From a virus (taxonomy: Duplodnaviria; Heunggongvirae; Uroviricota; Caudoviricetes), in the IMG/VR virus record IMGVR_UViG_2541047718_000017: a DNA stretch of 22,358 bases; one strand, written 5' to 3'. Below are positions 5,975 to 22,358 of the stretch, piece after piece. The position numbers and the translations under genes were made by a program. Numbering within the stretch: position 1 is the first letter of the stretch; each line of letters opens with the position of its first letter. Under the pieces are notes generated by a model. The model was not told where the DNA came from. It saw nothing but the letters and a program-made list of their open reading frames with translations, and did not search any database.

Positions 5975-6195
5975 TTACGCGCTGACCTGGCTGGCGAAAT
6001 TAACCAGGTACTGATCGGTGATGCGCTGACGCAGCATCAGGTTTTCAAGTGGCGGCACTGGCGTGTAGTCGTAGTCGATGGTGAGTTTTCCGGCTTTCAG
6101 CGTGTCTTTGTCGTTCACCGACTCATCCAGCCAGCAATCACCACCAATGAGATAGCCCTGACTGACCAGGCTGCGCATTTTGGCGCGGATACCTT
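5975..6195 (-). pseudogene. FI: tail sheath protein FI, detached C-terminal fragment (about 71 codons)
   Basis: ...[71 protein letters not shown] matches the P2 FI C-terminus; no FI-like sequence upstream of the junction at about 6194; the track ORF extends to 6337 only because no stop intervenes. Confidence 0.85.
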
Positions 6196-6207
6196 GGTTT
6201 GGGAGAA
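6182..6207 (+). other. hybrid invertase crossover site (junction A): FI-derived half GGCGCGGATACC, core TT, tail-fibre half GGTTTGGGAGAA
   Basis: 12-2-12 architecture; right half is the exact inverted repeat of 8045-8056; left half is sheath coding sequence. Confidence 0.7.
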
Positions 6208-6696
6208 GGCTCTGCATTACCGGTTGGGGTGCCTGTTCCGTGGCCTTCAGCCACTCCGCCAACAGGCTGGCTGAAATGCAACGGTGCCGCTTTTTCTGCT
6301 GAAGAATACCCGGAACTGGCAAAGGCTTATCCGACAAATAAATTGCCTGATTTACGTGGTGAGTTTATTCGTGGCTGGGATGACGGGCGTGGTATTGATG
6401 CTGTACGTGCCTTGCTAAGTCTTCAGAATGGAGGAGTGGAATCACACACCCACCAAGGGCAGCTCTTCAGAGTTAGTGATTATCGTACAAAAGAAATACC
6501 AGCATCAGAAGTTATGGGAAGAGGATATATTGCAAGCCTGACGCCGGGTGCTGATAGCCCACTTGATTTTGATGATTATTCTGTATCTTCTAATCCAAAT
6601 GGATATTTTGTCGGGAATCAGAGAACAACAGCATATGGGATAAATGAAACCCGTCCACGGAATATTGCATTTAACTATATCGTGAGGGCTGCCTGA
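6196..6696 (+). CDS. tail fibre variable C-terminal exon (Hv), currently not joined to the H constant region
   Basis: Begins GGT TTG GGA GAA (GLGE) immediately after the crossover core; translation ...[42 protein letters not shown]...NYIVRAA is a typical enterobacterial side-tail-fibre C-terminal receptor-binding domain; upstream in-frame stop at about 6163. Confidence 0.8.
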
Positions 6697-7298
6697 TGAA
6701 TAAAGCCGTATTAAATAACGAACTCATTGCCATAAAAGCGGGAGACATTACCATTTATAATTATGATGGTGAAACGCGGGAATATATTTCCACATCAACT
6801 GAATATCTTGCGGTTGGCGTCGGTATCCCGGCATGTTCTTGTTTAGATGCACCAGTTACACATAAAGCTGGTTATGCAATCTGCCGTTCTGCAGATTTTA
6901 ACTCATGGGAATATGTGCCAGACCATCGCGGTGAAATCATCTATAGCACCGAAACAGGAGAATCGAAAGAAATCACAGCTCCGGGTGATTACCCTGAAAA
7001 TACAACCACTATCGCCCCGTTAACGCCATATGATAAATGGGATGGTGAGAAATGGGTGACGGATACTGAGGCACAGCATAGTGCCGCAGTAGACGCGGCA
7101 GAAGCACAGCGCCAGTCACTGATTGATGCAGCAATGGCTTCCATTAGTCTGATTCAGCTGAAATTACAGGCCGGACGGAAGTTGACGCAGGCAGAAACAA
7201 CCCGACTTAACGCCGTGCTGGATTACATTGACGCGGTGGCGGCAACAGATACCAGCACCGCGCCGGATGTCATCTGGCCTGAACTGCCGGAGGCGTAG
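6696..7298 (+). CDS. tail fibre assembly chaperone (Tfa / Mu U-like) for Hv
   Basis: 200-aa ORF coupled to the Hv stop; C-terminal ...DYIDAVAATDTSTAPDVIWPELPEA motif typical of Tfa proteins. Confidence 0.85.
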   Translation: MNKAVLNNELIAIKAGDITIYNYDGETREYISTSTEYLAVGVGIPACSCLDAPVTHKAGYAICRSADFNSWEYVPDHRGEIIYSTETGESKEITAPGDYPENTTTIAPLTPYDKWDGEKWVTDTEAQHSAAVDAAEAQRQSLIDAAMASISLIQLKLQAGRKLTQAETTRLNAVLDYIDAVAATDTSTAPDVIWPELPEA

Positions 7299-7707
7299 GC
7301 CATTCAATATCTGGCGCACCGGTAGTATCGACTAGCTCCAGTGCGTCCAGATAATCCAGCCACGAATTATATTGCGCCAGTTCCTCGCTTTTCAGACGAC
7401 CAATAGCGGCTTTACCGGGCCATTGTTTACTGTTCATGTATTCGTTGGCCTGATTAAGCAATAATTGCCTTTCTGATTCTGCCTGTTGAATAAGTTCTTC
7501 ATGTGATGGTGGAGGTATTAGTGCCCATGTGGGTAATCCATTTTTTCCTGCAACACGAATTTTGTCATCTGGAGGCGTATTGATTGCAAATTCATTATAA
7601 ACATCATCACTGACAGCCAGAGCATCATCTGGCCATGAATTTGCATTAATGTAATCATCCTTAAGTGCAGGATTCACAAAAATGTTTAAAGATGGACTAT
7701 AAAACAT
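7270..7707 (-). CDS. alternative tail fibre assembly chaperone (Tfa', Mu U'-like)
   Basis: 145-aa ORF convergent with and overlapping tfa by 29 bp; C-terminal ...DYLDALELVDTTGAPDIEWPTPPA motif. Confidence 0.85.
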   Translation of the reverse strand: MFYSPSLNIFVNPALKDDYINANSWPDDALAVSDDVYNEFAINTPPDDKIRVAGKNGLPTWALIPPPSHEELIQQAESERQLLLNQANEYMNSKQWPGKAAIGRLKSEELAQYNSWLDYLDALELVDTTGAPDIEWPTPPAVQAR

Positions 7708-7708
7708 A

Positions 7709-8056
7709 TTACACCCCTATAGCGATATAACGACCTAATACAGCGTTTACAGCAGTCGCTATGCTTGAAAAACCGCGGAACTGATTTGATGTAATTGCAG
7801 AAGCCGACAGGATTCCTGCGCCTGAAGGTGTATGCCCCACATGACTAACTATCATTCCATAACATGCTGACGGAAAGGCAAAAGGAAAATCGTTAAGATA
7901 TCCGGCATCTTCACCACCAGACCCACCAAATCTCGCCTGCCCCCACTGAATAATCAGTGTTCTCCGGGAACCTGAAATAATTAACGGGATCGTTACATAC
8001 CCATTCAGGCCAATGACACCCGATGCAGTGCCAGCCAGAGATAATTCTCCCAAACC
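7709..8056 (-). CDS. alternative tail fibre variable C-terminal exon (Hv')
   Basis: Coding starts at the crossover core with the same GGT TTG GGA GAA (GLGE) as Hv; followed by tfa'. Codons upstream of 8056 in the track ORF (MMPVSCYLCIFLNV) lie in the outer half-site and are probably not coding. Confidence 0.78.
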   Translation of the reverse strand, partial: GLGELSLAGTASGVIGLNGYVTIPLIISGSRRTLIIQWGQARFGGSGGEDAGYLNDFPFAFPSACYGMIVSHVGHTPSGAGILSASAITSNQFRGFSSIATAVNAVLGRYIAIGV

Positions 8057-8070
8057 AACGTTTAAGAAAA
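8045..8070 (+). other. invertase crossover site (gix/hix/pix-like): TTCTCCCAAACC AA CGTTTAAGAAAA
   Basis: 12-2-12 near-dyad resembling the remembered hix/gix consensus (TTCTnnAAAACC-NN-GGTTT...); inner half is a perfect inverted repeat of 6196-6207; lies 56 bp upstream of the invertase start. Confidence 0.75.
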
Positions 8071-8125
8071 TGCAGAGGTAACAGCTAACTGGCATCATCT
8101 CCGGTTTTTATTCAGGGGGATGATC

Positions 8126-8692
8126 ATGCTTATTGGCTATGTACGCGTGTCAACAAATGACCAGAACACCGATTTGCAACGTAATGCACTGAACTGCGCG
8201 GGATGTGAGCAGATTTTTGAGGACAAAATCAGTGGCACTAAGTCCGACAGACCGGGGCTGAAAAAACTACTCAGGACACTATCGGCAGGAGACACGCTGG
8301 TTGTCTGGAAGCTGGACAGGTTGGGGCGCAGTATGCGGCATCTTGTTACGCTGATAGAAGAGTTGCGCCAGCGTGGTGTGAATTTCAGAAGCCTGACTGA
8401 CAGTATTGATACCAGTACCCCAATGGGCCGTTTCTTTTTTCATGTCATGGGTGCCCTGGCTGAAATGGAACGCGAACTGATAGTTGAACGTACCAGGGCA
8501 GGGCTGGCTGCAGCTCGTGCCAAAGGCAGAGTAGGTGGACGCCGTCCTAAGTTGACCACCGAACAGTGGGCACAGATTGGGCGTTTACTCGAGGCCGGAG
8601 AATCAAGACAGCGTATTGCACTGATTTTTGATGTAGGCGTTTCTACCATTTATAGAAAATTTCCGGCAAATAAGATCAATGAATCCCCCTGA
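8126..8692 (+). CDS. serine-recombinase DNA invertase (Gin/Pin/Cin/Hin family)
   Basis: MLIGYVRVSTNDQNTDLQRNAL...VVWKLDRLGRSMRHL...MGRFFFHVMGALAEMERELIVERT... matches Gin/Pin-type invertases from memory, including the catalytic Ser in YVRVST and a C-terminal HTH. Start taken at the internal ATG (track start 8120). Confidence 0.92.
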   Translation: MLIGYVRVSTNDQNTDLQRNALNCAGCEQIFEDKISGTKSDRPGLKKLLRTLSAGDTLVVWKLDRLGRSMRHLVTLIEELRQRGVNFRSLTDSIDTSTPMGRFFFHVMGALAEMERELIVERTRAGLAAARAKGRVGGRRPKLTTEQWAQIGRLLEAGESRQRIALIFDVGVSTIYRKFPANKINESP

Positions 8693-8740
8693 ATCAGCAT
8701 TATGTTGATTATCCCTGCAAGCAGACAAATACCGTTATTT

Positions 8741-8758
8741 TGTGTGAATAACGACACA
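8741..8758 (+). promoter_or_regulatory. Ogr-box (TGT-N12-ACA) of late promoter P_F upstream of FI
   Basis: TGTgtgaataacgacACA with 5-bp dyad arms, in the 143-bp gap between invertase and FI start, about 85 bp upstream of the FI ATG (8835). Confidence 0.6.
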
Positions 8759-8834
8759 ACTGCGCTTAGCTGTTTGTCAGGCACAATCACTTCAACATAG
8801 GGCGAAGCCTAATCCAATCAGGAGGTTCGCCACT

Positions 8835-9797
8835 ATGGCTCAGGATTACCACCACGGGGTGCGCGTTGTTGAAGTCAACGAAGGTACCCGATCTATTACC
8901 ACGGTGAGCACCGCCATCGTGGGTATGGTCTGCACGGGCGATGATGCCGATGCAAAAATGTTTCCTCTTAATAAACCCGTGCTGATCACTGATGTGCTGA
9001 CTGCCAGCGGTAAAGCGGGTGAGTCAGGTACTCTGGCCCGTTCGCTGGATGCCATCGCTGACCAGGCAAAACCCGTGACCATTGTTGTGCGTGTGCCGCA
9101 GGGTGAAACGGAAGACGAAACCACGACCAATATCATCGGCGCAGTGACTGCTGAAGGTAAAAAAACAGGTATGAAAGCCCTGTTATCTGCCCAGTCACAG
9201 CTCGGCGTTAAACCGCGCATTCTCGGCGTGCCAGGCCACGACACCAAGGCGGTAGCTACTGAGTTGCTGAGCGTGGCGCAAAGCCTGCGTGGATTTGCTT
9301 ACCTGTCAGCGTATGGCTGCAAGACAGTGCAGGAGGCGATCACTTACCGCGAAAACTTCAGCCAGCGCGAAGGGATGCTGATCTGGCCTGACTTTACTGG
9401 CTGGGACACGGTGCTGAATGCCGAAGCAACGGCATATGCCACCGCCCGTGCGCTTGGTCTGCGCGCCAAAATTGACGAGCAGACCGGATGGCACAAAAGC
9501 CTGTCCAACGTGGGCGTGAACGGTGTCACCGGAATTTCTGCAGATGTGTTCTGGGATCTGCAGGACCCGGCAACCGATGCAGGTCTGCTGAACCAGAACG
9601 ACGTCACCACGCTTGTGCGTAAAGACGGTTTCCGCTTCTGGGGTTCCCGCTGCCTGAGTGATGACCCGCTCTTTGCCTTCGAAAACTACACCCGCACGGC
9701 GCAGGTGCTGATGGACACGATGGCAGAAGCACACATGTGGGCGGTGGATAAACCGCTTAACCCGTCGCTGGCCCGCGACATTATCGAAGGTATGTGA
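8835..9797 (+). pseudogene. FI: tail sheath protein FI, N-terminal 319 codons, truncated at the inversion junction
   Basis: MAQDYHHGVRVVEVNEGTRSITTVSTAIVGMVCTGDDADAKMFPLNKPVLITDV... is near-collinear with the P2 FI N-terminus; reading frame ends ...RDIIEG-M-stop two codons after the crossover core. Confidence 0.88.
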
Positions 9798-9800
9798 GAA
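9775..9800 (+). other. hybrid invertase crossover site (junction B): FI-derived half GCGACATTATCG, core AA, H-derived half GGTATGTGAGAA
   Basis: H-side half (TTCTCACATACC on the minus strand) matches the Hv/Hv' half-site TTCTCCCAAACC at 10 of 12 positions; the other half is sheath coding sequence. Confidence 0.7.
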
Positions 9801-10836
9801 GACCAGCTACATCCTTTCCACTCAAATTGGTAAGCGTATTGTCCAGCGGTTGTTTACCTGCCAGCGCATTAAGCATTGTCGTGGCAAAGTTCGGATCATT
9901 CCCCAGTGCCGCCGCCAGTTCGTTCAGTGTATCCAGTGCAGCAGGTGCAGAACCCACCATTCCTGCAATCGCCGATTTCACAAAAGCCGTAGTGGCAATC
10001 TGTGTATTGTTGACCGACTGCGCCGCCGTGGGGGCTGTTGGCGTTCCGGTGAGTGCCGGACTCGACAACGGTGCTTTTAGTGCCAGCGCATTGTTAATGG
10101 TGGTACTGAAATTCGGATCATTGTTAATGGCTGCGGCTATTTCTTTCAGCGTGTCCAGCGTGGCTGGCGCACCATTAATAAGGGCCGTCAGTGCCGCCTG
10201 TACAAACGCAGTGGTCGCAACCTGCGTGGTATTATTCCCCGCCGCTGGCGTTGGCGCTTTGGGGGTTCCGGTAAATGTCGGGCTGGCTTTTGGCGCGTAC
10301 TGTGAATGCGGGTCCGGTGCGGCAAGATGTTTTGCCATCTGATCATCCGCGTACACCTTCAGCTCCAGTGCCTTGTCATCCACATACTTGCGGGTTGCCA
10401 GCACTACAGCAGGGTCGATTTTCAGGGTGATATTGTCCGTGCTGCTGGTAATCAGCACCATGCGCACGGTCTGAGTGCGCCCGCTACCTTCAGCCAGTTG
10501 CGGCTTATAGCTTTCCGGGCAGTTGCCCACGGCAATCAATGCACCTGACTCATCAAACAGGCCCACTTCACGTATCCACCAACCGCCCTCGTTTTCAGGG
10601 ATCACCTGTTCGGCAATAATCTGGCTGCTGTTCTGCGGGTCGATATAAAGCATATTCAGCGCAGCCCGGCGTTTCTCATTTACCAGTGCCGTCTGCTTTG
10701 CGTCCGGCGTTGGCAATACTCCACCGCCATCGCCCACCGCCATATGGGTAATTTTTAGCGGCACACCGAGCGCGGCGGCGCTGGCAAGTTTCGCCGCGCC
10801 AATATCCGTCAGCAGGGTATAAAATTTTGTGCTCAT
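9781..10836 (-). CDS. H: tail fibre protein H, N-terminal constant region (Mu Sc-equivalent), ending 2 codons after the crossover core
   Basis: MSTKFYTLLTDIGAAKLA...MAVGDGGG...ESYKPQLAEGSGRTQT... and the repeated ...TQIATTAFV... motifs match the P2 gpH N-terminal part; the ORF ends ...LTYL-R-stop at the junction with antisense FI. Confidence 0.88.
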   Translation of the reverse strand: MSTKFYTLLTDIGAAKLASAAALGVPLKITHMAVGDGGGVLPTPDAKQTALVNEKRRAALNMLYIDPQNSSQIIAEQVIPENEGGWWIREVGLFDESGALIAVGNCPESYKPQLAEGSGRTQTVRMVLITSSTDNITLKIDPAVVLATRKYVDDKALELKVYADDQMAKHLAAPDPHSQYAPKASPTFTGTPKAPTPAAGNNTTQVATTAFVQAALTALINGAPATLDTLKEIAAAINNDPNFSTTINNALALKAPLSSPALTGTPTAPTAAQSVNNTQIATTAFVKSAIAGMVGSAPAALDTLNELAAALGNDPNFATTMLNALAGKQPLDNTLTNLSGKDVAGLLTYLR

Positions 10837-19278: not shown

Positions 19279-21045
19279 ATGAACACCACACTGACACCCG
19301 CAGATCTCGATCCCCGTCGGCAGGCCATGCTGCTGTACTTTCAGGGATACCGCGTAGCCCGCATTGCTGAAATGCTGGGCGAGAAAGTTGCAACCGTTCA
19401 CAGCTGGAAAAAACGCGACAAGTGGGGTGACTATGGGCCGCTGGATCAGATGCAGCTCACCACCGCCGCACGCTACTGCCAGCTCATCATGAAGGAGCAC
19501 AAAGAAGGGAAAGATTTCAAAGAGATTGACCTGCTGGCGCGCCAGTCGGAGCGCCACGCGCGGATCGGCAAGTTTAACAATGGCGGCAACGAAGCCGACT
19601 TAAACCCTAACGTCGCCAACCGCAATAAAGGCCCACGCCGTCAGCCGGAAAAGAATGTTTTCACCGATGAGCAGATTGAGAAGCTGGAAGAAATCTTCCA
19701 TTCCTCCATGTTCAACTACCAGCGCCACTGGTGGGAAGCCGGAAAAACCAACCGCATCCGCAACCTGCTGAAGTCACGCCAGATCGGCGCGACCTTTTAC
19801 TTTGCCCGTGAAGCCCTGATTGACGCCCTGCTTACCGGACGTAACCAGATTTTCCTTTCCGCCAGCAAGGCACAGGCCCACGTCTTTAAGCAGTACATCA
19901 TCGACTTCGCCAAAGAAGTGGGGGTGGAGTTGAAAGGCGATCCGATGGTGCTTCCTAACGGGGCCACGCTTTACTTCCTCGGCACCAATGCCCGCACGGC
20001 CCAGAGTTATCACGGCAACCTGTATCTGGATGAATATTTCTGGATACCGAAATTCCAGGAGCTGCGCAAAGTGGCTTCCGGTATGGCTATTCACAAAAAA
20101 TGGCGACAAACCTATTTTTCCACGCCATCCAGCCTGACACACAGTGCTTATCCGTTCTGGTCCGGTGCGCTGTTCAACCGTGGGCGCAACAAGGCCGACA
20201 AGGTGGACATCGACCTGTCCCACAGCAATCTGGCCCCCGGCCTGCTGTGCGCAGACGGGCAATACCGCCAGATAGTCACCGTGGAAGATGCGGTGCGCGG
20301 CGGCTGTAACCTGTTCGACCTTGACCAGTTGCGCATGGAGTACAGCCCGGACGAATACCAGAACCTGCTGATGTGCGAGTTTGTGGACGATCTCGCGTCC
20401 GTATTTCCGCTCAGCGAGCTGCAGGCGTGCATGGTGGACAGCTGGGAAGTCTGGACCGACTTTCATGCACTGGCTCTGCGCCCGTTTGGCTGGCGCGAAG
20501 TGTGGATCGGTTATGACCCGGCAAAAGGTACGCAAAACGGCGACAGCGCCGGATGCGTGGTGGTGGCACCGCCAGCCGTGCCTGGTGGTAAGTTCCGCAT
20601 TCTTGAGCGTCACCAGTGGCGCGGGATGGACTTCCGCGCCCAGGCTGACGCCATCAAAAAACTGACCGAACAGTACAACGTGACCTATATCGGTATCGAC
20701 TCAACCGGCGTTGGTCACGGGGTTTATGAGAACGTGAAAGCGTTCTTTCCTGCCGTCCGGGAGTTTGTCTACAACCCCAATGTTAAAAACGCCCTGGTAC
20801 TCAAGGCCTACGACATTATCAGCCACCGCCGTCTGGAGTTTGACGCCGGGCACACCGACATTGCGCAGTCATTTATGGCAATCCGTCGCGCTACCACTGC
20901 CAGTGGCAACCGCCCGACCTATGAAGCCAGCCGCAGCGAAGAAGCCAGCCATGCCGATCTGGCCTGGGCAACAATGCACGCACTGTTTAACGAACCGCTG
21001 CAGGGCGAGTCCGCCAATACCAGCAATATTGTGGAGATTTTTTGA
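19279..21045 (+). CDS. P: terminase large (ATPase) subunit
   Basis: 588-aa ORF divergent from O and followed by Q, as in P2. Confidence 0.92.
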   Translation: MNTTLTPADLDPRRQAMLLYFQGYRVARIAEMLGEKVATVHSWKKRDKWGDYGPLDQMQLTTAARYCQLIMKEHKEGKDFKEIDLLARQSERHARIGKFNNGGNEADLNPNVANRNKGPRRQPEKNVFTDEQIEKLEEIFHSSMFNYQRHWWEAGKTNRIRNLLKSRQIGATFYFAREALIDALLTGRNQIFLSASKAQAHVFKQYIIDFAKEVGVELKGDPMVLPNGATLYFLGTNARTAQSYHGNLYLDEYFWIPKFQELRKVASGMAIHKKWRQTYFSTPSSLTHSAYPFWSGALFNRGRNKADKVDIDLSHSNLAPGLLCADGQYRQIVTVEDAVRGGCNLFDLDQLRMEYSPDEYQNLLMCEFVDDLASVFPLSELQACMVDSWEVWTDFHALALRPFGWREVWIGYDPAKGTQNGDSAGCVVVAPPAVPGGKFRILERHQWRGMDFRAQADAIKKLTEQYNVTYIGIDSTGVGHGVYENVKAFFPAVREFVYNPNVKNALVLKAYDIISHRRLEFDAGHTDIAQSFMAIRRATTASGNRPTYEASRSEEASHADLAWATMHALFNEPLQGESANTSNIVEIF

Positions 21046-22079
21046 TGGGAAAGAGTAAGAAGAACCGCGCTGCGTCGACGAAACAGATCCAGCATAAAAG
21101 CCAGACTTCAGCCGAAGCATTCAGCTTCGGTGATCCCGTTCCTGTTCTGGACCGCCGCGAACTGCTGGACTATGTGGAATGCGTACAGATGGAGTGTTGG
21201 TACGAGCCACCCGTAAGTTTTGACGGACTGGCGCGCACCTTCCGGGCTGCCGTGCATCACAGTTCCCCGATTGCAGTAAAGTGCAACATTCTGACCAGTA
21301 CCTATATCCCTCATCCGCTGCTCAGCCAACAGGCTTTTTCGCGTTTTGTACAGGACTATCTGGTATTTGGTAACGCCTACCTGGAGAAACGCACGAACCG
21401 ATTCGGTGAAGTTATCGCCCTTGAGCCTGCGCTGGCAAAATACACCCGACGCGGGTTAGACCTGGATACCTACTGGTTTGTGCAATACGGTATGACAACC
21501 CAGCCGTATCAGTTCACGAAAGGCAGCATTTTTCAGCTGATGGAACCGGACATCAACCAGGAGATCTACGGCCTGCCCGGCTATCTTTCTGCCATCCCAT
21601 CCGCTTTGCTCAACGAGTCCGCCACGCTGTTCCGCCGCAAGTATTACATTAACGGCAGTCATGCCGGCTTCATCATGTACATGACCGATGCCGCGCAGAA
21701 CCAGGAGGATGTGAACAACCTCCGCAACGCAATGAAAAGCGCCAAAGGTCCGGGTAACTTCCGCAATCTGTTTATGTACTCGCCTAATGGTAAAAAAGAC
21801 GGACTTCAGATTATCCCGTTGTCAGAAGTCGCAGCGAAGGATGAATTTCTGAATATCAAAAATGTTAGTCGCGATGACATGATGGCAGCACACCGCGTGC
21901 CGCCACAGATGATGGGGATAATGCCAAATAATGTTGGGGGGTTTGGGGATGTGGAGAAGGCAAGTAATGTATTTGTACGCAATGAACTAATACCATTGCA
22001 AAAAAGATTTGAAGAGTTAAATGTTTGGTTAAAAGAAAAAGTGATACAGTTCGAAGAATATAAACTTCATTCAAATTAG
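21045..22079 (+). CDS. Q: portal protein
   Basis: Overlaps the P stop (TGATG); about 344 aa as in P2 gpQ; the last 50 codons are markedly AT-rich. Start taken at the ATG (track used a TTG at 21042). Confidence 0.9.
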   Translation: MGKSKKNRAASTKQIQHKSQTSAEAFSFGDPVPVLDRRELLDYVECVQMECWYEPPVSFDGLARTFRAAVHHSSPIAVKCNILTSTYIPHPLLSQQAFSRFVQDYLVFGNAYLEKRTNRFGEVIALEPALAKYTRRGLDLDTYWFVQYGMTTQPYQFTKGSIFQLMEPDINQEIYGLPGYLSAIPSALLNESATLFRRKYYINGSHAGFIMYMTDAAQNQEDVNNLRNAMKSAKGPGNFRNLFMYSPNGKKDGLQIIPLSEVAAKDEFLNIKNVSRDDMMAAHRVPPQMMGIMPNNVGGFGDVEKASNVFVRNELIPLQKRFEELNVWLKEKVIQFEEYKLHSN

Positions 22080-22085
22080 CTTTAA

Positions 22086-22104
22086 GGCTGCCAGTTTGGC
22101 AGCC
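22086..22104 (+). terminator. hairpin GGCTGCCA-gtt-TGGCAGCC downstream of Q (candidate terminator)
   Basis: 8-bp perfect stem, 3-nt loop, 7 nt after the Q stop; followed by an AT-rich tract but no clean U-run. Confidence 0.35.
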
Positions 22105-22154
22105 AGAACCTTTATCGCCATTTTAGATAAAAAGCAAAAAATGGATCAGTAATA

Positions 22155-22358
22155 TGAACCGCCCCGGGAATCCTGGAGACTAAACTTCCTGAGAAAGAGG
22201 TAAACAGGATGACTAAAAATACTCGTTTTTCCCCCGAAGTCCGTCAACGGGCAGTCCGTATGGTTCTGGAAAGTCAGAGCGAATATGACTCACAATGGGC
22301 GACAATTTGTTCCATTGCTCCAAAGATTGGCTGTACGCCGGAGACTCTGCGTGTCTGG
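22155..22358 (+). mobile_element. IS3-family insertion sequence, left end (IS629/IS1203/IS3411-like), truncated by the window edge
   Basis: Terminal TGAACCGCCCCGGGAATCCTGGAGACTAAACTTCC matches the IS629-group left inverted repeat as I remember it, followed by the orfA start. Confidence 0.8.
22209..22358 (+). CDS. IS3-family transposase OrfA (N-terminal HTH part, partial)
   Basis: Translation [50 protein letters not shown] is characteristic of IS629-group OrfA. Confidence 0.8.

Follow-up and report, generated by a model that had tools for sequence, protein, structure and literature searches.

What an insertion sequence has done to the prophage in which it lies is the question raised by the right end of the window analyzed here, i.e., the whole stretch of 22,358 nucleotides, which breaks off inside such an element shortly after a phage portal gene. 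The initial annotation placed an IS3-family, IS629-like left end at 22155, in the accessory-gene hotspot that neighbors cos, and suggested that the insertion had disrupted cos or replaced accessory cargo in a decaying prophage. The whole window is 100% identical to the chromosome of Escherichia coli AF57 (NZ_OZ546943.1), a blood isolate from the United Kingdom, and nearly identical to AR_0013. The annotation of the source locus shows the P2-type late gene set, from ogr through the portal gene, to be present. Coordinates beyond the window are given for the extended AF57 locus (L005), in which each position equals the window position plus 10000, and for the corresponding loci of Ecol_224 (L009), CE10 (L010), N32 (L008), and IAI39 (L001 and L015).

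The features at the right end of the window are as follows.

21045..22079, plus strand: intact portal gene (homologue of P2 Q and 186 W), supported by its open reading frame, by the RefSeq label "phage portal protein," and by alignment with P2 gpQ

22086..22104, no strand: perfect 8-bp hairpin, GGCTGCCA-GTT-TGGCAGCC, recognized by folding and by its location at the position of P2 tQ and 186 tW

22112..22154, minus strand: cargo-gene remnant comprising the last 13 codons and the stop codon, with the translation ...ITDPFFAFYLKWR*, which equals the C terminus of the Ecol_224 protein

22155..22358, plus strand: first 204 bp of a complete 1310-bp IS629, identical to bases 1 to 204 of the element

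22155..22179, plus strand: left terminal inverted repeat (IRL) of IS629, of whose 25 bases 23 agree with the right end when that is read as its reverse complement

22209..22358, plus strand: 5' part of IS629 orfA (N-terminal part of the helix-turn-helix transposase), cut by the window end; the whole orfA lies at 32209..32535 of the AF57 locus

The portal gene is the last intact phage gene ahead of IS629. Its open reading frame closes with a TAG stop codon at 22077-22079, as do the RefSeq gene coordinates in the source genome (21045..22079), and its product is 60% identical to P2 gpQ over its full length of 344 amino acids and can be aligned with it up to the last residues, so the gene was left untouched by the insertion. 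The IS3-family left end (TGAACCGCC...) follows the portal stop codon at a distance of exactly 75 bp, with its first base at 22155, and the left-end strings TGAACCGCCCCGGG and TGAACCGCCCCGGGAATCC both begin at this same position.

Beyond the window, the element can be followed to its right end in AF57, where it occupies 1310 bp (L005 32155..33464) and ends at what would be position 23464 of the window. Of 25 positions in its inverted repeats, IRL and IRR, 23 match, and the termini are 5'-TG...CA-3'. The 108-amino-acid product of orfA contains the Pfam domain HTH_Tnp_1 (E value of 7e-13), and the 296-amino-acid product of orfB contains the Pfam domains rve, HTH_21, and rve_3; the NCBIfam model transpos_IS3 matches the element with 314.6 bits, and the ALIL frameshift pseudoknot (RF01497) is detected with 120.2 bits against a gathering score of 50. 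In the source genome, RefSeq labels the element as an IS3 family transposase with programmed frameshift. Over its 1310 bp it is 99.5% identical to the annotated "insertion sequence: IS3 family IS629" of the Stx-phage records LC567824.1 and LC567828.1, and it is 100% identical to the copy in AF017626. The element, whose identity and completeness are direct observations, is IS629, a chance match being ruled out by the sequence identity, the inverted repeats, the domains, and the ALIL pseudoknot. Its size and TG...CA repeats, the orfA/orfB arrangement with a -1 frameshift, and its near-identity to IS629 agree with this assignment at the level of both the IS3 family and IS629. In length, termini, open reading frames, and ALIL pseudoknot it resembles IS629 (IS3 family, IS150/IS51-type, with the isoforms IS1203 and IS3411) from Shigella sonnei and E. 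coli O157:H7, and we found no structural differences from the known element. The host we take to be of a phylogroup-F-type extraintestinal lineage (IAI39/CE10), unlike O157. About 27 places in the AF57 chromosome match the IS-containing query and, given the intact open reading frames and ends together with this number of host copies, the IS629 copy is probably still active.

A target-site duplication of 3 to 4 bp is absent from this copy: the left flank reads ATA, versus CTT in AF57, GGT in IAI39, and GTT in CE10 at the right. The duplication is missing because, in our interpretation, the original right flank has been deleted. Since only 21 of 47 IS629 copies in O157 have a target-site duplication (PMC3271280), the duplication is not needed for membership in IS629.

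The 75 bp between the portal gene and IS629 (22080-22154) are not specific to the interrupted prophages. The target is uninterrupted in seven complete genomes, where the portal 3' end and the spacer are the same but no IS is present. In Ecol_224, the closest uninterrupted relative, the first 75 bp past the portal gene are 100% identical to the spacer; the sequence in common with the window extends to ...CAGTAATA(TG) and then continues into a minus-strand gene of 416 amino acids (L009 1068..2318), whose stop codon lies 32 bp past the portal stop codon. As the minus strand of 22112-22154 encodes exactly the C terminus of the Ecol_224 protein, IS629 cut this cargo gene 13 codons before its end. 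The cargo protein matches the PADLOC candidate family PDC-S59 with an E value of 2.4e-31; the AAA_22 domain scores 26.2 bits, just under the 27-bit cut-off, and the NCBIfam search of this protein returned no match. The gene, which has a GC content of 37%, is listed here as encoding a candidate defense ATPase (PADLOC PDC-S59). A low-GC cargo gene as the target of the IS is in line with the cos-proximal gpA-gpQ defense hotspot of P2-like phages (Rousset et al. 2022, PMC9122126; PMC13586616), defined as one or more variable genes between the portal gene Q and the replication gene A, adjacent to cos (PMC9122126). In Ecol_224 the cargo lies between portal and cos, on the cosL side, whereas the P2 genes tin and old lie to the opposite side of it; in the window, the hotspot cargo is reduced to 13 codons. 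The Ecol_224 prophage is integrated elsewhere, near rcdA/ybjJ.

The base composition changes already within the portal gene, the final 180 bp of which have a GC content of 35.6% versus 52% in the remainder of the gene; despite this low GC, the portal C terminus can still be aligned with P2 gpQ. The low GC of window positions 21900-22079 resembles that of the spacer (37%) and that of the cargo gene of the relatives (37%). Exchange of the hotspot cargo module may have had its boundary within the portal 3' end.

The spacer also contains the hairpin at 22086..22104, with a folding energy of -15.3 kcal/mol (z = -2.6). As in phages 186 and P2, it follows the portal gene, and the annotated terminators of P2 (tQ) and 186 (tW) occupy the same position after the portal stop codon. 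A scan of 21900-22358 for consensus terminators gave no match, because the hairpin is not followed by a T-run. From its position, the hairpin is probably the former shared terminator of the convergent portal and cargo genes.

With regard to cos, only 7- to 8-mers of the spacer align with the cos regions of P2 and 186 (E values of at least 2), and the 75 bp contain no cos-like motif, in agreement with the initial annotation, which had recognized none. The empty spacer is not in itself a sign of cos loss. The 19-nucleotide cos ends lie 167 bp (P2) and 176 bp (186) past the portal stop codon; in Ecol_224, cos is found at L009 2427-2445, past the cargo gene and 1.39 kb from the portal stop codon. 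These distances make the absence of cos within a 75-bp spacer uninformative by itself. The cos core (CCCCGCCACGCC) and the right-arm flank of the relatives align with those of 186 and P2, convincingly so for Ecol_224. In Ecol_224, the cos core is overlapped by a 195-bp gene annotated as "hypothetical protein" (L009 2359..2553), probably a spurious call.

What lies past the right end of IS629 is more informative. In AF57 this end (...CCCGGGGCGGTTCA) is joined to CTTTACGAAGAGATC..., which is the beginning of the final 327 bp of the 1053-bp integrase gene int, and the order further on is int 3' end, attR, yneJ' (C-terminal fragment), yneK, ydeA, and marC. The int remnant covers only profile positions 129-170 of the 172 positions of the Pfam Phage_integrase model. 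The prophage sits within the LysR-type gene yneJ, beside the mar locus, and splits it into an N-terminal and a C-terminal part; the N-terminal fragment ends just ahead of window position 1 (ogr), and the prophage boundaries were set by the split yneJ. The yneJ integration-site regions are located at 9369-9914 and 33862-34200 of the AF57 locus. An exact att core repeat of at least 12 bp between the two prophage ends was not found. An 11-mer considered as the att core was rejected, as it lies outside the att regions, with one copy inside the ogr end and the other inside the int remnant. Between IS629 and attR, AF57 has no replication gene A, no immunity repressor, and no intact integrase. The cos core, searched with the 12-mer GGCGWGGCGGGG and with the Ecol_224-type 20-mer at up to three mismatches, is present in P2, 186, and Ecol_224 and absent from the 42-kb AF57 locus and from the IAI39 locus (L001). 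This absence is observed directly, and the remnant thereby differs from phages 186 and P2 in having no cos anywhere.

These observations bear on the simplest account of the locus, according to which IS629 merely inserted into a prophage that is complete in all other respects, so that cos and the early genes would follow its right end. The complete and undamaged state of the element is what this account would predict. The right end is joined, however, to a 327-bp piece from the 3' end of int, beyond which come attR and yneJ', no target-site duplication is found, and the cos motif is missing from the 42 kb around the AF57 locus. A simple insertion with the early region beyond it is refuted by the int 3' end at the right junction and by the missing duplication, and we assign it practically no weight.

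The history of the locus can be read from its sister genomes. Five complete genomes, IAI39, CE10, N32, AR_0013, and AF57, have the exact portal/IS junction; all of them agree completely in the 1310-bp IS and in 30 bp of left flank, while three different right flanks occur:

CE10 and N32: right junction in cII (Ecol_224 L009 9652), with a cII fragment, an apl-like gene, cI, the insert of ISEc53 and a ClbS-like gene, and a complete int past the IS

IAI39: right junction at CE10 L010 6500, in int, with the last 400 bp of int past the IS

AF57 and AR_0013: right junction at CE10 L010 6573, 73 bp deeper in int, with the last 327 bp of int past the IS

When the CE10 state is compared with Ecol_224, 8,539 bp comprising the cargo gene, cos, tum/DinI, A, dam, fil, and most of cII are missing, a figure of 8.5 kb that is an estimate, Ecol_224 being a relative with another integration site and not the ancestor. 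Compared with CE10, a further 4,152 bp are missing from AF57 and 4,079 bp from IAI39; of the 4.15 kb by which AF57 falls short of CE10, part consists of ISEc53 and the ClbS-like gene, which were maybe never in the AF57 ancestor. The total loss amounts to about 12.7 kb and includes the cargo gene, cos, tum/DinI, A, dam, fil, cII, the apl-like gene, cI, and two thirds of int. The insert between cI and int of CE10 (L010 3574-5704; the same in N32) consists of the ISL3-family element ISEc53 and a gene for a ClbS/DfsB-family four-helix-bundle protein.

Both the fixed left junction and the three right junctions are seen directly in the assembled genomes. A fixed left junction combined with variable endpoints that coincide to the base with the right terminus of the IS is the signature of an IS-anchored deletion and, judged by this sequence signature, the five genomes represent a nested deletion series anchored on the right end of IS629. 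The same junctions speak against the idea that the prophage was truncated beforehand by an unrelated deletion and that IS629 later landed by chance on the scar. Nothing specific points to such a sequence of events, although a single genome taken alone would be compatible with it; in the three sister-genome states, the endpoints meet the IS right terminus to the base and the left junction is invariant, a pattern to be anticipated only when the IS end took part in each deletion. We therefore hold a chance insertion at a preexisting scar to be highly improbable. With a probability of about 0.9, the DNA next to IS629 was the site of an IS-mediated deletion in which the prophage lost cos and its early region.

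Several suggestions of the initial annotation can be judged in this light. The position of the element in the cos-proximal accessory hotspot was correctly recognized, as the cargo gene of Ecol_224 lies there and 13 of its codons are left in the window, and the IS3-family left end at 22155 proved to belong to a full element with 99.5% identity to IS629. Extension past the window end, which had been proposed as a check, located the IS right end and, beyond it, no target-site duplication and the int 3' end followed by attR and yneJ'; a complete IS followed by normal phage sequence had been named as the outcome that would speak against the proposal, and what AF57 has is a complete IS followed by the 3' end of int, so the idea was not refuted. 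The proposal that the IS disrupted cos or replaced cargo was right in that both cos and cargo are gone, but not as to the route: the IS hit the 3' end of the cargo gene, and it was the adjacent deletion that took cos. The picture of a decaying prophage is borne out by the loss of about 12.7 kb including cos, the replication and control genes, and most of int, a scale well beyond the local disruption that had been envisaged.

We propose the following scenario. A single IS629 insertion most probably occurred in an ancestor shared by the members of a small E. coli lineage (IAI39, CE10, N32, AR_0013, and AF57), its target being the 3' end of the cargo gene between portal and cos in a P2/186-like prophage residing in yneJ. 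While the left IS junction stayed in place, the DNA flanking the IS on the right was probably lost stepwise by IS-mediated adjacent deletion, possibly aided by IEE. A first step would have removed about 8.5 kb (cargo gene, cos, tum/DinI, A, dam, fil, and most of cII) and led to the state of CE10 and N32; a second would have removed about 4.1 kb more, reaching into int, to give the IAI39 state, with the AF57/AR_0013 state ending 73 bp further in. The outcome in AF57 is a late-gene-only remnant of about 24 kb devoid of cos, replication and immunity genes, and a functional integrase. We infer the order of these steps from the nested endpoints. The simple-insertion ancestor, in which the IS right end would be followed by the rest of the cargo gene (ATATGCAACTTTCGG), was found in 0 of 5,426 complete E. 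coli genomes, an uninformative result that leaves the first step reconstructed, not observed.

As for the mechanism, the series found here resembles the adjacent genomic deletions reported for IS629 and IS3 (Ooka et al. 2009; Kusumoto et al. 2011, for IEE; Kanai et al. 2022) in its variable length from one IS terminus, in the retention of the IS, and in the lack of long homology at the endpoints; unlike those deletions, it is reconstructed from natural isolates and is not experimental. In O157, many genomic deletions and inactivated genes are attributed to IS629, and in IEE-dependent events deletions of a few nucleotides to more than 40 kb adjacent to the IS have been recorded (PMC9943667). 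For IS3, deletions of variable length start from the inverted repeats, sometimes with the IS left intact, and have endpoint homology of at most 6 bp (PMC8860574). On this basis, adjacent deletion mediated by the transposase seems to us to have somewhat better than even odds of being the route taken.

A different route to the same structures would be homologous recombination, dependent on RecA, of the portal-proximal IS629 with additional copies in the same orientation, located in cII and later in int, with each exchange removing the intervening DNA and one IS. This host, with its many identical IS629 copies (the roughly 27 matching places), would offer the substrates, and IS629 favors prophages, which hold 62% of its copies in O157 (PMC3271280). 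The product would moreover be the same as that of adjacent deletion, i.e., one intact IS, no target-site duplication, and an endpoint at the IS terminus. Such a history requires, however, three separate same-orientation insertions within 12 kb and recombination after each of them. The intermediate that it predicts, int (6573) joined to the IS629 left end, occurs in 0 of the 5,426 genomes, which is mildly against it, and the two endpoints in int, only 73 bp apart, are better matched by short stepwise erosion from the IS end. Recombination between IS copies is in our view a serious but distinctly less likely route, and we infer that the deletions would have been made by transposase rather than by IS-IS exchange.

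The deletions are not the only damage to these prophages. In AF57, the sheath gene and the tail-fiber gene H are split by an inversion, and the features concerned are the following.

5975..6196, minus strand: C-terminal fragment of the sheath gene, split off by the inversion

8835..9794, plus strand: N-terminal part of the sheath gene, split by the inversion

9787..10836, minus strand: tail-fiber gene H, split by the inversion

8126..8692: intact phage serine invertase gene

The rearrangement is a single inversion of about 3.6 kb within window positions 5975-10836, with junctions near 6191-6207 and 9787-9794. A cix/gix-like half-site, ACCTTGGTTTGGGAGAA, is found at the 6191-6207 junction and has an inverted partner at 8045-8061; by its sequence features, the event resembles recombination by the invertase with a quasi-site in the sheath gene. 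The sheath gene is intact in N32, CE10, and IAI39, which dates the inversion to after the insertion of IS629. The sublineages differ in what else has happened to them: in CE10 and N32 the late region is fully intact, with the tail-fiber invertible segments in opposite orientations; IAI39 has two IS26 copies, one of which lies, alongside a fragment of an oxidoreductase, in the terminase gene P while the other replaces the invertase/tail-fiber variable region; and AF57 and AR_0013 share the sheath/H inversion. The IS26 loci of IAI39 (L001 9873-11346 and L015 15604-16308) are independent of the IS629 event.

Judged by its gene content, the AF57 prophage is predicted to be unable to replicate, to excise, or to be packaged, and to be fixed in the chromosome. 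The additional independent damage in each sublineage argues for neutral erosion rather than for selection on the late genes. The remnant of CE10 and N32, on the other hand, has neither cos nor replication genes yet possesses ogr and the complete late operon, the integrase being lost as well in the AF57 state. One might imagine that such a remnant is kept as a domesticated, noncompeting source of P2 capsids and tails, either as a captive helper of a P4-like satellite, with trans-activation by the delta protein, or as a tailocin-like particle. If so, the IS629-anchored deletion would be a "grounding" step rather than neutral decay. This reading has little support in view of the inactivations that arose independently in three of the five genomes, and we regard it as very unlikely.

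Each component of the locus, namely, IS629, a P2/186-like phage, the gpA-gpQ hotspot, and IS-anchored prophage deletion, is already known; the locus represents a common and well-understood kind of prophage decay and implies no new biology. For annotation, the 22-kb block looks like a nearly complete P2-type prophage, and it would be overcalled by prophage predictors that score late genes. The fixed left junction and the variable right junctions serve as a lineage marker and, with five genomes and three endpoints, the locus provides a clear natural case of stepwise IS629-anchored prophage erosion.
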